IMG/VR virus record: IMGVR_UViG_2648501338_000005
Origin: a virus
Lineage: Duplodnaviria; Heunggongvirae; Uroviricota; Caudoviricetes
Strand: one strand, 5' to 3'
DNA length: 6,641 bases
Shown here: positions 2,922 to 4,214 of the stretch, in pieces
Layout of the letters: each line of letters begins with the position of its first letter
How positions within the stretch are numbered: position 1 is the stretch's first letter
Program-made: the position numbers and the translations under genes
Notes under the pieces: model-generated
Databases searched by the model: none
Seen by the model: only the letters and a program-made list of their open reading frames with translations
Told to the model about the DNA's origin: nothing

Positions 2922-3869
2922 TCACTCTCCTTTGATGCGAATGCCAGCAAGCCAGTTTCTTATGCCGATATATTCAGCGTTCCTGAAACCGCTTTTTACA
3001 TATATAAATGGCAAGCGAAGATTGTGACCATTGACTGCCAGGTAGTCTTTACAACCCTGTTCGGTGAAACAGCAGGTAACGAATTCATCAATATCTTTCA
3101 CAGCAACGCGCCGCCATTTTTCTGGTGGCTCTCGAAAGTTTTCATGAAGTAGCTCGAGACGACGACTATGGCGTTTATTGGCTTCATTGCCATCTTCGTC
3201 AACCCAGACAATCCGGTCATGGTCATAATCAGCATCAACAACGATTTCGCGCTTTTGATACACACAAAACATGGGATCTGACGTTATTCGATTGTCCTGT
3301 GTTCGAATATTTTCACCGATGATGCCAAACGAATCTGGTGCAGATTTTGTCTGCATCTCTTCGATACGTTCAGCCATCGCAGCACACTCTTCAAAGTTGC
3401 TTAATGCTTTTCGCTCCCATTCGGCGCATTGTTTTTCCAGTTCTGCTATGCGCTTACTTCCATCCGCGATTACTCCCTCGTAATATTCACGCTGCTCGTT
3501 GAGTTTTGATTTTGCTGCTTCAAGCTCAACGTGCAGCTTCCCTACCGTTAGCGCAATATCCTCGTTCTCCTGGTCGCGGCGTTTGATGTATTGCTGGTTT
3601 CTTTCCCGTTCATCCAGAAGCGCCAGCGCAACATTTGGATTAAAGGCAGCAATAAATTCAGCGTTTGCGTAAGCCTGAGCATCTGTTTCAACCAGGCAGT
3701 TAACATGACATTCTGCAATCACGCCACCGGGTTCTCCTTTCCATTTTTGACAAACAAAAACTCCTGTTATATTCCCATGCTGATTGCCCGATGTATGCCC
3801 TACGATGTAGCATCCTTTAGTTGCTTTCTCTGCTGCTTCACGCAGCGCCTGATAGTCAATCTCGCTCAT
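2922..3869 (-). CDS. ead/Ea22-like modular prophage protein (315 aa)
   Basis: ATG at 3869, TGA at 2924-2922. N-terminal MSEIDYQALREAAEKATKG... resembles, from memory, the conserved N-terminus of ead/Ea22-like proteins. Central Glu/Arg/Lys-rich heptad-like region (ERERNQQYIKRRDQENEDIALTVGKLHVELEAAKSKLNEQREYYEG...) and a distinct C-terminal domain follow. Confidence 0.55.
   Translation of the reverse strand: MSEIDYQALREAAEKATKGCYIVGHTSGNQHGNITGVFVCQKWKGEPGGVIAECHVNCLVETDAQAYANAEFIAAFNPNVALALLDERERNQQYIKRRDQENEDIALTVGKLHVELEAAKSKLNEQREYYEGVIADGSKRIAELEKQCAEWERKALSNFEECAAMAERIEEMQTKSAPDSFGIIGENIRTQDNRITSDPMFCVYQKREIVVDADYDHDRIVWVDEDGNEANKRHSRRLELLHENFREPPEKWRRVAVKDIDEFVTCCFTEQGCKDYLAVNGHNLRLPFIYVKSGFRNAEYIGIRNWLAGIRIKGE
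2926..2947 (-). repeat. 22-bp leader motif, copy 1 (CTGGCATTCGCATCAAAGGAGA on minus strand)
   Basis: Lies 5 nt upstream of the ATG at 2920. Matches the copy at 4670-4691 at 21 of 22 positions with identical spacing to the start codon. Here it overlaps the last codons of the upstream ead/Ea22-like gene. Confidence 0.7.
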
Positions 3870-4042
3870 TCATCGCCCCACTCATCACAATATGCTTCGA
3901 CCGCAGTTTTCCCTGCTTCATAATCATCACGCCATGCTTCAGCATCAGCAGCACTGCCACCACGTAACTCTGCATAGTCCATTAACAGTTCATGCCATTC
4001 TTCAAAACTGACGCTGTATTTAGTTGAACCAAAATCAGCCAT
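3866..4042 (-). CDS. small highly acidic protein (58 aa)
   Basis: Not in the ORF track (under 60 aa). ATG at 4042 preceded by GAAGAGGAGG with a 6-nt spacer; its TGA (3868-3866) overlaps the ATG of the next gene (3869-3867). Translation MADFGSTKYSVSFEEWHELLMDYAELRGGSAADAEAWRDDYEAGKTAVEAYCDEWGDE has 16 D/E against 4 K/R. Confidence 0.5.
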   Translation of the reverse strand: MADFGSTKYSVSFEEWHELLMDYAELRGGSAADAEAWRDDYEAGKTAVEAYCDEWGDE

Positions 4043-4214
4043 TTTGTTCCTCCTCTTCGTCTTTTATTTCGTGATATGAGTAATTGCAGTAGTTAAAGAA
4101 AATATCTTTTGCTTCGTCATGTATTTCATCAGGCGTCTCATCATCCACTTCGAATTCATCCTCGAAATCTCCACCGGCTATTCCCGTTTCAATAATTATT
4201 TTAAACTTTCGCAT
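4035..4214 (-). CDS. small highly acidic protein (59 aa)
   Basis: Not in the ORF track. ATG at 4214 directly after an in-frame stop; its 3' end overlaps the start of the 3866..4042 ORF and carries that ORF's SD. Translation MRKFKIIIETGIAGGDFEDEFEVDDETPDEIHDEAKDIFFNYCNYSYHEIKDEEEEQNG has 20 D/E against 5 K/R. Own SD is weak and sits in a hairpin. Confidence 0.4.
   Translation of the reverse strand: MRKFKIIIETGIAGGDFEDEFEVDDETPDEIHDEAKDIFFNYCNYSYHEIKDEEEEQNG

Follow-up and report, generated by a model that had tools for sequence, protein, structure and literature searches.

Two small, strongly acidic genes beside an Ea22-like gene in the early operon of a Rac-like lambdoid prophage

Layout of the locus and its translation signals

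The window analysed here, a stretch of 6,641 nucleotides from a virus of the class Caudoviricetes (IMG/VR record IMGVR_UViG_2648501338_000005), is 100% identical to a stretch of a Rac-like lambdoid prophage of Escherichia coli C325. Two mini-ORFs, here called orfA and orfB, lie in it next to an ead/Ea22-like gene, and the segment contains the following features, in order of position.

2922-3869, minus strand: ead/Ea22-like gene, 315 aa, downstream of orfB (Pfam Ead_Ea22, E 2e-44; in RefSeq)
3866-3869, minus strand: ATGA overlap of orfB with the Ea22-like gene (sequence)
3866-4042, minus strand: orfB, 58 aa, ATG start, phrog_519 family (WP_000753068.1)
4035-4042, minus strand: overlap of orfA with orfB, 8 nt, ATGGCTGA (sequence)
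4035-4214, minus strand: orfA, 59 aa, ATG start, DUF7167 / phrog_1997 (WP_052915472.1)
4049-4055, minus strand: Shine-Dalgarno sequence of orfB, GAGGAGG, 6 nt upstream of the orfB ATG and embedded in the codons of the acidic tail of orfA (sequence)
4221-4243, minus strand: leader element of orfA, consisting of AGGAGG (4238-4243), the hairpin GCCGCCC-GAAA-GGGCGGT (4221-4238) and AGTTAA, followed by the ATG
4308-4664, minus strand: 118-aa gene of phrog_1621, upstream, the last before the 93-nt leader (PHROGs; RefSeq start 4664)

The coordinates, the lengths and both overlaps, when re-read from the sequence, are as the initial annotation gave them, and the tight translational linkage proposed there is borne out by the position of GAGGAGG inside the end of orfA and by the ATGA junction to the Ea22-like gene. 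The placement of both ORFs on the minus strand had been omitted. As to their being missing from annotation, this is true of the earlier 60-aa ORF track but not of RefSeq, which holds both; the names used there are ‘DUF7167 family protein’ for orfA and ‘hypothetical protein’ for orfB. At present this is thus an ordinary finding, of small genes correctly spotted that had been publicly annotated before.

The gene order is cro, ydaT, O, P, DUF1627, DUF977, a hypothetical gene, orfA, orfB and Ea22, followed further on by RusA and a Q-like gene, placing the two ORFs in the accessory region of the early operon, with the replication genes on one side and Q on the other. The RefSeq annotation has no HTH gene directly beside them. 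In phage ArgO145, they are found in an exo-xis-like leftward region instead. The orfA-orfB segment is a translationally coupled cassette, located in an Ea22-associated variable part of the rightward early operon.

The GAGGAGG of orfB is conserved in all aligned copies, and orfB would be translated from this embedded signal. The leader block of orfA is conserved in 10 copies, and in ArgO145 it stays with orfA across the recombination junction. The hairpin appears in the MFE and the centroid fold alike and, when folded, it would bring the Shine-Dalgarno sequence to approximately 6-7 nt from the orfA ATG; we infer that the AGGAGG-hairpin-ATG leader acts as a split ribosome-binding site from which orfA would be translated. 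A role of the GC hairpin (4221-4238) as terminator or as a known RNA was likewise considered. It lacks a T-run and is therefore not a terminator, Rfam gave no match to it, and the z-score of the whole-leader fold is only -1.84. The orfA forms of 87-93 aa that have been annotated are due to a leader that is open in frame (GTGAA for GTTAA). Since the window has an in-frame TAA directly before the ATG, it is the short form that is conserved.

A crude consensus scan of positions 3500-4800 revealed neither a sigma-70-like promoter on the minus strand nor a terminator-like site. With no promoter-like site just upstream, orfA and orfB would depend for their expression on the early transcript arriving from upstream.

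Conservation, families and distribution

orfA and orfB are genuine accessory genes of phages, distinct from each other and both already catalogued. The dN/dS of orfA is 0.03-0.10 at dS of 0.3-0.5, two compared E. coli copies of orfB differ by 6 synonymous and 0 non-synonymous changes, and comparison of orfB with Enterobacter gives dN of 0.12, with dS saturated. Low dN/dS, matches to family HMMs and cross-genus homologues all agree with the mini-ORFs being real and kept in related prophages. The pair, counted as present where at least 80% of it is carried, occurs in 1750 of the 5426 complete E. coli genomes; C325 alone, among 1912 matching records, shows 99% identity over the 349-bp pair. Several cryptic-prophage copies (L003, L006, L007 and L008) possess stop codons or have lost start codons, suggesting that the genes are apparently not maintained after prophage degeneration. 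The window copies themselves depart from their families at near-invariant positions, orfA by the loss of one codon in the DDAT motif (DDDATP to DDETP) and orfB by P47A.

orfA is a full-length member of DUF7167/phrog_1997, a family name also used by RefSeq: its residues 2-52 match positions 1-60 of the 60 in the Pfam model PF23768 with 51.9 bits (E 7.9e-14), against a curated gathering cut-off of 24.4 bits, and the match to phrog_1997 has an E value of 4e-28. Residues 1-58 of orfB match phrog_519 (E 1.2e-20, 75 bits); the match takes in no more than positions 76-137 of the profile's 143 columns, and some members of this family possess N-terminal extensions. The same profile is matched by orf183 of Kuttervirus CBA120, by ORF8 of a Morganella phage and by a NADAR-fused domain of phage EP_H11, and W16, L20, A24, G28, W37, Y41, G44 and P47 are conserved in the alignment of the distant members. 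In a search of 1.84 billion proteins, relatives of orfB formed 74 clusters at 50% identity. No Pfam family covers orfB, and a literature search turned up no paper naming DUF7167. Across Pfam, PHROGs, PADLOC and NCBIfam, the only families matched are those without an assigned function, none of them an anti-restriction or defence family.

AlphaFold predicts for orfA (pLDDT 82) a beta-hairpin (residues 2-8 and 17-23), a helix (28-42) and a disordered acidic tail, KDEEEEQNG, and for orfB (pLDDT 82.5) a three-helix bundle (13-27, 34-42 and 47-55). Each protein would be a compact, very acidic single domain, most likely working alone. No solved structure, Ocr and ArdA included, matches the predicted folds, and sequence and profile searches of the PDB, with its solved Acrs, returned nothing significant for either family. 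A ribbon-helix-helix assignment for orfB (Arc/CopG), an idea that arose from an ‘AEENGgS’ style helix-loop-helix and a weak PDB profile match to pRN1 ORF56 (E 0.61), was rejected at hhalign probabilities of 4.8% for Arc and 1.2% for CopG. The DUF5419 label carried by the Morganella homologue was not reproduced by Pfam either (a single family member gave E 0.02).

A functional pairing of the two ORFs is not supported, as they belong to unrelated families that occur apart outside E. coli. An hhalign comparison shows no relation, dismissing them as paralogues, and an obligate pair is dismissed by Enterobacter, which possesses orfB without DUF7167, and by Citrobacter and Klebsiella, which possess DUF7167 without orfB. 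Both families nearly always adjoin Ead/Ea22-like genes, in the leftward exo-xis-like region (ArgO145, and the Enterobacter and Citrobacter prophages, before xis/int) as well as in the rightward nin-like region. The Ea22-like gene is directly upstream of orfB in Enterobacter and directly upstream of DUF7167 in Citrobacter, while in E. coli the gene after many copies of the pair is a hypothetical one other than Ea22. Relatives of orfB are also found in virulent Ackermannviridae (Kuttervirus and Taipeivirus phages), in Morganella phage Mecenats66, where the gene adjoins rdgC, and in P2-like prophages, directly after a Dam methylase and gpA; the P2-like phages with such relatives encode no Ea22. 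This spread over unrelated phage types speaks for a function that is directed at the host and of general use, not for one confined to lambdoid phages.

Acidity and likeness to known small proteins

The extreme acidity claimed for both proteins is confirmed, and it is family-wide. orfA has 20 D/E against 5 K/R residues (net charge -15, pI 4.05) and orfB 16 against 4 (net charge -12, pI 4.05). Net charge per residue is -0.25 and -0.21, respectively, and of the 37 CDS annotated for this section of the prophage the next most acidic is at -0.08. Net charge runs from -17 to -7 in the DUF7167 family (median -12) and from -13 to -4 in the orfB family (median -10), with acidic columns conserved on the helices and tails; residues 14, 15, 18, 22 and 25 of helix 1 of orfB, all acidic, fall on one face, as judged from sequence alone. 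Such conservation makes it plausible that the proteins could act as electrostatic decoys.

The AT-rich patch that had been noted is real for orfA (GC 0.37, GC3 0.35), in part a result of its composition rich in D, E, K, I, F, N and Y, but not for orfB (GC 0.45, GC3 0.29), which is like its neighbours (0.45-0.50; flanks 0.45-0.52; whole window 0.49). Given that the AT-richness is confined to orfA, and that the scan of the coding strand gave neither promoter-like nor terminator-like sites, the segment does not look like a classical moron, and the origin suggested earlier is not supported.

As to the known acidic mimics, Ocr (T7 gp0.3) and ArdA are likewise small, early, very acidic and encoded by phages or mobile elements, and Ocr and other DNA mimics have charge densities in the same range as the -0.21 to -0.25 per residue found here. 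However, orfA and orfB are much smaller, with other predicted secondary structure. Ocr and ArdA are elongated dimers, unlike the predicted beta-hairpin with helix or the 45-residue three-helix bundle, and these predicted folds correspond neither to the elongated all-helical Ocr dimer resembling bent B-DNA nor, being single domains of 58-59 aa, to the elongated three-domain fold of ArdA. Neither ORF matched the Ocr Pfam model at E <= 0.1 or the ArdA model. Both are outside the Ocr and ArdA families. The closest analogy in terms of possible mode of action is offered by very small acidic phage proteins of 50-60 aa with the single function of inhibiting a DNA-handling enzyme, such as the RecBCD inhibitor Gp5.9 of T7 and the UDG inhibitor p56 of phi29, even if no PDB chain is significantly matched by orfA or orfB in sequence or fold. 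In neighbourhood and size, the two resemble the Ea22-associated early proteins of the lambda exo-xis region (Orf60a, Orf61, Orf63, Orf73 and Ea8.5), which are non-essential and poorly understood (PMC8614690). They differ from these in lacking homology and, for orfB, in being present in virulent and P2-like phages as well.

Candidate functions

The explanation that we favour, tentatively, is that each protein is a stoichiometric binder or decoy, an inhibitor serving host takeover or counter-defence by electrostatic, DNA-like mimicry. Soon after induction or infection, each would occupy a positively charged, nucleic-acid-binding surface of a protein of the host or of a rival element. This agrees with purifying selection on genes that are real, fall into curated or clustered families and have intact ribosome-binding signals, with a negative charge that is not peculiar to the window copy and makes the two extreme outliers of their prophage, with an accessory location in early operons (the leftward region in ArgO145 included), and with the relatives of orfB across unrelated phage types. 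Against it stand the lack of sequence, profile or fold likeness to solved DNA mimics or any characterised protein, the decay of cryptic-prophage copies, the deviations of the window copy at near-invariant positions, and the fact that a globular domain of 58 aa, unless oligomeric, is too small to mimic more than a short length of DNA. Small acidic proteins also fill many other roles. In the literature, the sole hint of function is that machine learning gave phrog_519 a borderline score as an anti-CRISPR (PaCRISPR 0.54; PMC9409062).

One further example that may bear on this decoy model is presented by phages EP_H11 and IME392, in which a domain of the orfB type is joined to the C-terminus of a NADAR enzyme, a DNA ADP-ribosyl-glycohydrolase. 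The NADARs of phages serve counter-defence against DarTG1, and the antitoxin DarG2, in the account given by the same source, combines a hydrolase with a second, DarT2-interacting domain (PMC11825919); the C-terminal domain of DarG is described as a ssDNA mimic in work cited there (Deep et al., 2023, ref. 22 of PMC11825919). By analogy, and in architecture only, NADAR plus an acidic orfB-type domain would parallel the macrodomain plus mimic domain of DarG2, and may be regarded as a precedent for a reversal enzyme joined to an acidic mimic domain. However, the fusion is limited to a single lineage, and orfB of the window stands alone.

In a more specific version, which we consider unlikely, orfB would be a portable acidic three-helix decoy against a DNA-binding immunity or repair protein of the host, deployed by lambdoid, P2-like and Ackermannviridae phages and a virulent coliphage of roughly 111 kb, and DUF7167 would be another inhibitor, independent of the first and with a target of its own. 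The NADAR fusion may hint, again by analogy, at DarT-type DNA ADP-ribosyltransferase toxins as one possible target. Should this version be true, about one third of complete E. coli genomes hold a pair of uncharacterised counter-defence genes. If either protein inhibits a defence or DNA-repair protein, a function would be gained for two orphan families, orfB extending across temperate and virulent enterobacterial phages, and very small inhibitors would join the anti-defence toolbox.

Next in likelihood, possible but less probable than the general decoy model, is a role in modulating development in the manner of the exo-xis proteins Orf60a, Orf61, Orf63, Ea8.5 and Ea22 of lambda, by tuning the lysis-lysogeny choice or host physiology through contacts with host proteins, with no mimicry or inhibition of defence. 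The nearly constant proximity to Ead/Ea22-like genes in both leftward and rightward regions fits such a role, and the small exo-xis proteins, Ea22 among them, have a documented effect on lysogenisation and induction (PMC7093339, PMC3824215, PMC8614690). However, Orf63, Ea8.5 and the C-terminal domain of Ea22, all present in the PDB, are unmatched by either protein, and relatives of orfB occur widely among strictly virulent Ackermannviridae and Ea22-less P2-like phages, making a lysogeny-specific role unfit for the orfB family.

It is improbable that the two serve the adjoining Ea22-like protein as accessory subunits or chaperones, kept at a fixed ratio to it by translational coupling. The ATGA junction, and the Ea22-like genes directly upstream of orfB in Enterobacter and of DUF7167 in Citrobacter, speak for it, but the order relative to Ea22 flips among loci, the downstream gene varies in E. 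coli, and orfB is present in Ea22-less phages. In addition, the repeated N-termini of Ea22 resemble recombination linkers, so adjacency is explicable without any functional tie.

Relief of type I restriction by Ocr/ArdA-like mimicry, the version put forward in the initial annotation, appears more improbable still: the charge density and the early-operon position are as expected of such mimics, but the Pfam scan, the predicted folds, shared by no solved structure, and the elongated dimer shape of Ocr and ArdA all argue against it, and a resident prophage hardly needs to evade the type I system of its own host. Least credible is that the ORFs arose by chance or are decayed remnants without function in this prophage, a view with which the disrupted cryptic copies, the altered near-invariant residues and the single 99% match agree, but which is contradicted by low dN/dS and cross-genus conservation, by the carriage of the pair in 1750 genomes, and by two intact reading frames in the window, both with good ribosome-binding sites.

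Identity and conservation of the two genes

The initial annotation had described two overlapping, strongly acidic small reading frames, and these are genuine genes of unusual composition, lying on the minus strand, with their lengths, charge counts and overlaps of 8 nt and ATGA all confirmed from the sequence:

orfA, 4214->4035, minus strand, 59 aa, MRKFKIIIETGIAGGDFEDEFEVDDETPDEIHDEAKDIFFNYCNYSYHEIKDEEEEQNG
orfB, 4042->3866, minus strand, 58 aa, MADFGSTKYSVSFEEWHELLMDYAELRGGSAADAEAWRDDYEAGKTAVEAYCDEWGDE
ead/Ea22-like gene, 2922-3869, 315 aa, its ATG overlapped by the orfB stop

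The orfA stop overlaps the orfB start in ATGGCTGA, ATGA forms the junction between the orfB stop and the Ea22-like ATG, and a strong Shine-Dalgarno sequence of orfB, GAGGAGG (4049-4055), is positioned 6 nt 5' of its ATG, inside the codons of the acidic tail of orfA. The products contain 20 D/E versus 5 K/R (orfA) and 16 D/E versus 4 K/R (orfB), both with a pI of 4.05. The proposed AT-rich patch holds for orfA (GC 0.37) but not for orfB, whose GC of 0.45 is within the range of the flanking genes (0.45-0.52; window, 0.49).

Multiple lines of evidence show that orfA and orfB are real genes. The orfA product aligns along its entire length to Pfam DUF7167, at 51.9 bits against a cut-off of 24.4, and has a second match in phrog_1997 (E 4e-28); the orfB product matches phrog_519 (E 1e-20), with no family found for it in a Pfam scan. 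Among intact E. coli copies of orfA, dN is 0.02-0.03 and dS 0.3-0.5 (dN/dS 0.03-0.10), and the DUF7167 genes of Citrobacter and Klebsiella differ by a dN of 0.066 at a dS of about 2.4. Two E. coli copies of orfB are separated by 6 synonymous and 0 non-synonymous changes, while comparison with the Enterobacter gene gives a dN of 0.12 with dS saturated. Novelty is low, as both genes are already in public annotation (RefSeq WP_052915472.1, 'DUF7167 family protein', for orfA; WP_000753068.1, 'hypothetical protein', for orfB) and in family databases as proteins of unknown function.

Of 5426 complete E. coli genomes, 1750 contain the 349-bp pair at a coverage of at least 80%. Where the prophage is degenerate, a copy often has a stop codon or has lost its start (L003, L006, L007, L008), the lesions in cryptic or partial prophages being W37 to stop in orfB, K36 or C43 to stop in orfA, and ATG to ATA or GTG, suggesting selection at the level of the phage and not on the host. 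A cassette class at roughly 88% identity, present in many E. coli genomes, appears to be pseudogenised.

The E. coli C325 chromosome (NZ_CP124819) contains the region at 100% identity, as part of a lambdoid, Rac-like prophage integrated beside rspB, and matches of at least 99% to the window pair were found in C325 only. Here orfA has one codon (3 nt) deleted in the near-invariant DUF7167 'DDAT' motif (DDDATP to DDETP, 4137-4142, codons 25-26), a deletion apparently private to this strain, and orfB has P47A at the near-invariant Pro47 (codon 47, 3902-3904). These deviating alleles may indicate relaxed constraint in the C325 prophage.

Genomic setting of two independent modules

On the coding strand, the cassette is preceded by genes for a cro-like protein, a YdaT-like protein, an O-like HTH protein, a DnaC-like ATPase, DUF1627, DUF977 and a 118-aa hypothetical protein, and by a 93-nt leader; orfA, orfB and the Ea22-like gene follow, and beyond these lie an inverted ParDE toxin-antitoxin pair, DUF968, RusA, a DUF1133 protein occupying the antiterminator position, and lysis genes. 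By this order, the cassette occupies the variable accessory segment that separates the replication genes from late control, which corresponds in position to the lambda nin region.

The orfA and orfB families show no relationship in profile-profile comparison, and each gene is a module independent of the other. Enterobacter prophages have an orfB homologue (78% identical) directly 3' of an Ea22-like gene, without DUF7167, at two sites: ahead of xis/int, and in the interval from P to NinE/NinG/Q. In Citrobacter prophages, the Ea22-like gene is followed by a DUF7167 homologue (64% identical) and then by an unrelated 59-aa protein, and in a Klebsiella phage a DUF7167 homologue precedes an unrelated Cys-rich protein. 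In Stx phage ArgO145, the same block, in which one extra gene stands between the 118-aa gene and orfA, with orfB and the Ea22-like gene following, is located in the leftward early region, flanked by the recombination genes and int.

Ea22-like N-termini recur and are widely shared, and some homologues are chimeric, with DUF1627 or Ea22 N-termini joined to C-terminal parts of orfA or orfB (P0038, P0107, P0163). Both observations identify this area as a hot spot of recombination, which could alone account for the constant adjacency to Ea22; the chimeric proteins are footprints of deletions and read-through within it. In these three proteins and in P0137, the N-terminal part is either a DUF1627/Ea22 N-terminus or an upstream gene plus translated leader, fused to the C-terminal half of orfA or orfB.

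Apart from a few Pantoea/Pseudomonas matches, DUF7167 occurs only in temperate lambdoid elements of Enterobacterales; it is present in 14 phage records. With 74 clusters at 50% identity among 1.84 billion proteins searched, the orfB family is small, yet it is ecologically broad, occurring in 192 phage records, including virulent Kuttervirus phages (Vi01, CBA120 orf183, Det7) and Taipeivirus phages. In Morganella phage Mecenats66 a relative is found just upstream of rdgC, and in P2-like prophages directly 3' of Dam methylase and gpA, a further accessory position beside DNA replication/modification functions. The P2-like gene (L025-L030, 3001-3162) encodes 53 aa and stands after the Dam methylase and the gpA replication initiator, a 62-aa gene coming next.

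In two closely related phages, EP_H11 and vB_EcoM_IME392, which are 95% identical and the only carriers, a 218-aa NADAR-domain protein ends in an orfB-type domain, which makes up its C-terminal 55 residues:

NADAR-orfB fusion, L023 2506-3162, Escherichia phage EP_H11 (OP688485), NADAR Pfam E 7e-27, phrog_519 E 7.5e-20

A fusion of two adjacent genes is suggested by internal Met residues that lie just ahead of the orfB-type domain. Phage NADAR proteins strip ADP-ribose from DNA, neutralising DarTG1 defence (PMC11825919), and DarG2, as noted there, combines a hydrolase with a second, DarT2-interacting domain (PMC11825919); the same paper cites Deep et al. (2023), who describe the C-terminal domain of DarG as an ssDNA mimic. 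As the fusion represents a single lineage, it is a lead and not functional evidence. The interest of the pair is modest, resting on its frequency in E. coli and on this lead for orfB.

Predicted folds, charge and possible mechanism

The AlphaFold2 model of orfA (39-sequence alignment; pLDDT 82) combines a beta-hairpin (2-8, 17-23) with a helix (28-42), the acidic tail being modelled at low confidence, and that of orfB (14-sequence alignment; pLDDT 82.5) has three helices (13-27, 34-42, 47-55). Sequence and profile searches returned no significant PDB matches for either, nor were there matches in PADLOC or NCBIfam. A likeness of orfB to ribbon-helix-helix proteins proved superficial when tested and was rejected. 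Of the orfB residues that are invariant (W16, L20, A24, G28, W37, Y41, G44, P47), most are aromatic or belong to the small residues of the core, a pattern that fits a constrained fold with a charged surface kept in sign, not in residue identity.

Net charge spans -17 to -7 among DUF7167 proteins and -13 to -4 among orfB relatives, many columns are conserved as D/E in both, and no other product of the prophage comes near these two in acidity. This family-wide acidity and outlier status, the accessory position in an early operon, and the spread of orfB among unrelated phages, beside DNA replication/modification genes, speak in favour of mimicry. Against it stand the absence of a link to known mimics, the very small globular folds, and a contextual hint limited to one single-lineage fusion. 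The proposal of Ocr- or ArdA-like DNA mimics is not supported. The most economical mechanism, which we put forward tentatively, is that the proteins serve as acidic decoys for nucleic-acid-binding proteins; the main rival, an exo-xis-type developmental role for orfA and orfB, we consider somewhat less likely.

The orfA leader and neighbouring reading frames

A crude consensus scan found no promoter-like or terminator-like site on the coding strand, and the reading of the pair as a moron is accordingly not upheld. The better moron candidate is the ParD antitoxin/ParE-RelE toxin pair (1294-1856, plus strand), which runs against the early operon around it and is found with the cassette in ArgO145 as well.

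Within the 93-nt leader, on the minus strand, a conserved AGGAGG (4238-4243) leads directly into a GAAA-looped GC hairpin (GCCGCCC-GAAA-GGGCGGT, 4221-4238), after which come AGTTAA and the ATG. The AGGAGG-hairpin element is also present in other copies (L002, L004, L007-L011), and in ArgO145, where the gene upstream differs, the conserved block starts exactly at this element, which therefore belongs to the orfA module. Split ribosome-binding sites have been described for some T4 genes, and folding of the hairpin would similarly bring AGGAGG to a normal distance from the orfA ATG, making the leader a putative split site that depends on this folding. The hairpin, having no T-run, is ruled out as a terminator, and it matches no Rfam family. 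In many E. coli copies (L008-L011) a leader with GTGAA-ATG stays open in frame, resulting in annotated 'long' DUF7167 forms of 87-93 aa; in the window, an in-frame TAA (4215-4217, GTTAA-ATG) directly 5' of the ATG makes only the 59-aa form possible.

The gene upstream of the leader (4308-4724, minus) is a mechanical ORF of 138 aa from GTG at 4724, while RefSeq starts it at ATG 4664 (118 aa), and the phrog_1621 match begins at residue 21 of the longer form; its product has a weak zinc-ribbon-like match (TFIIB zinc-binding, E 0.002). An intact 171-aa ORF (2405-2920, minus, ATG at 2920) matches phrog_9263 (E 1e-123), where RefSeq has only a 179-nt 'frameshifted' pseudogene (2742-2920), leaving 2408-2742 unannotated; our impression is that its D...EAK motif may recall PD-(D/E)XK nucleases.
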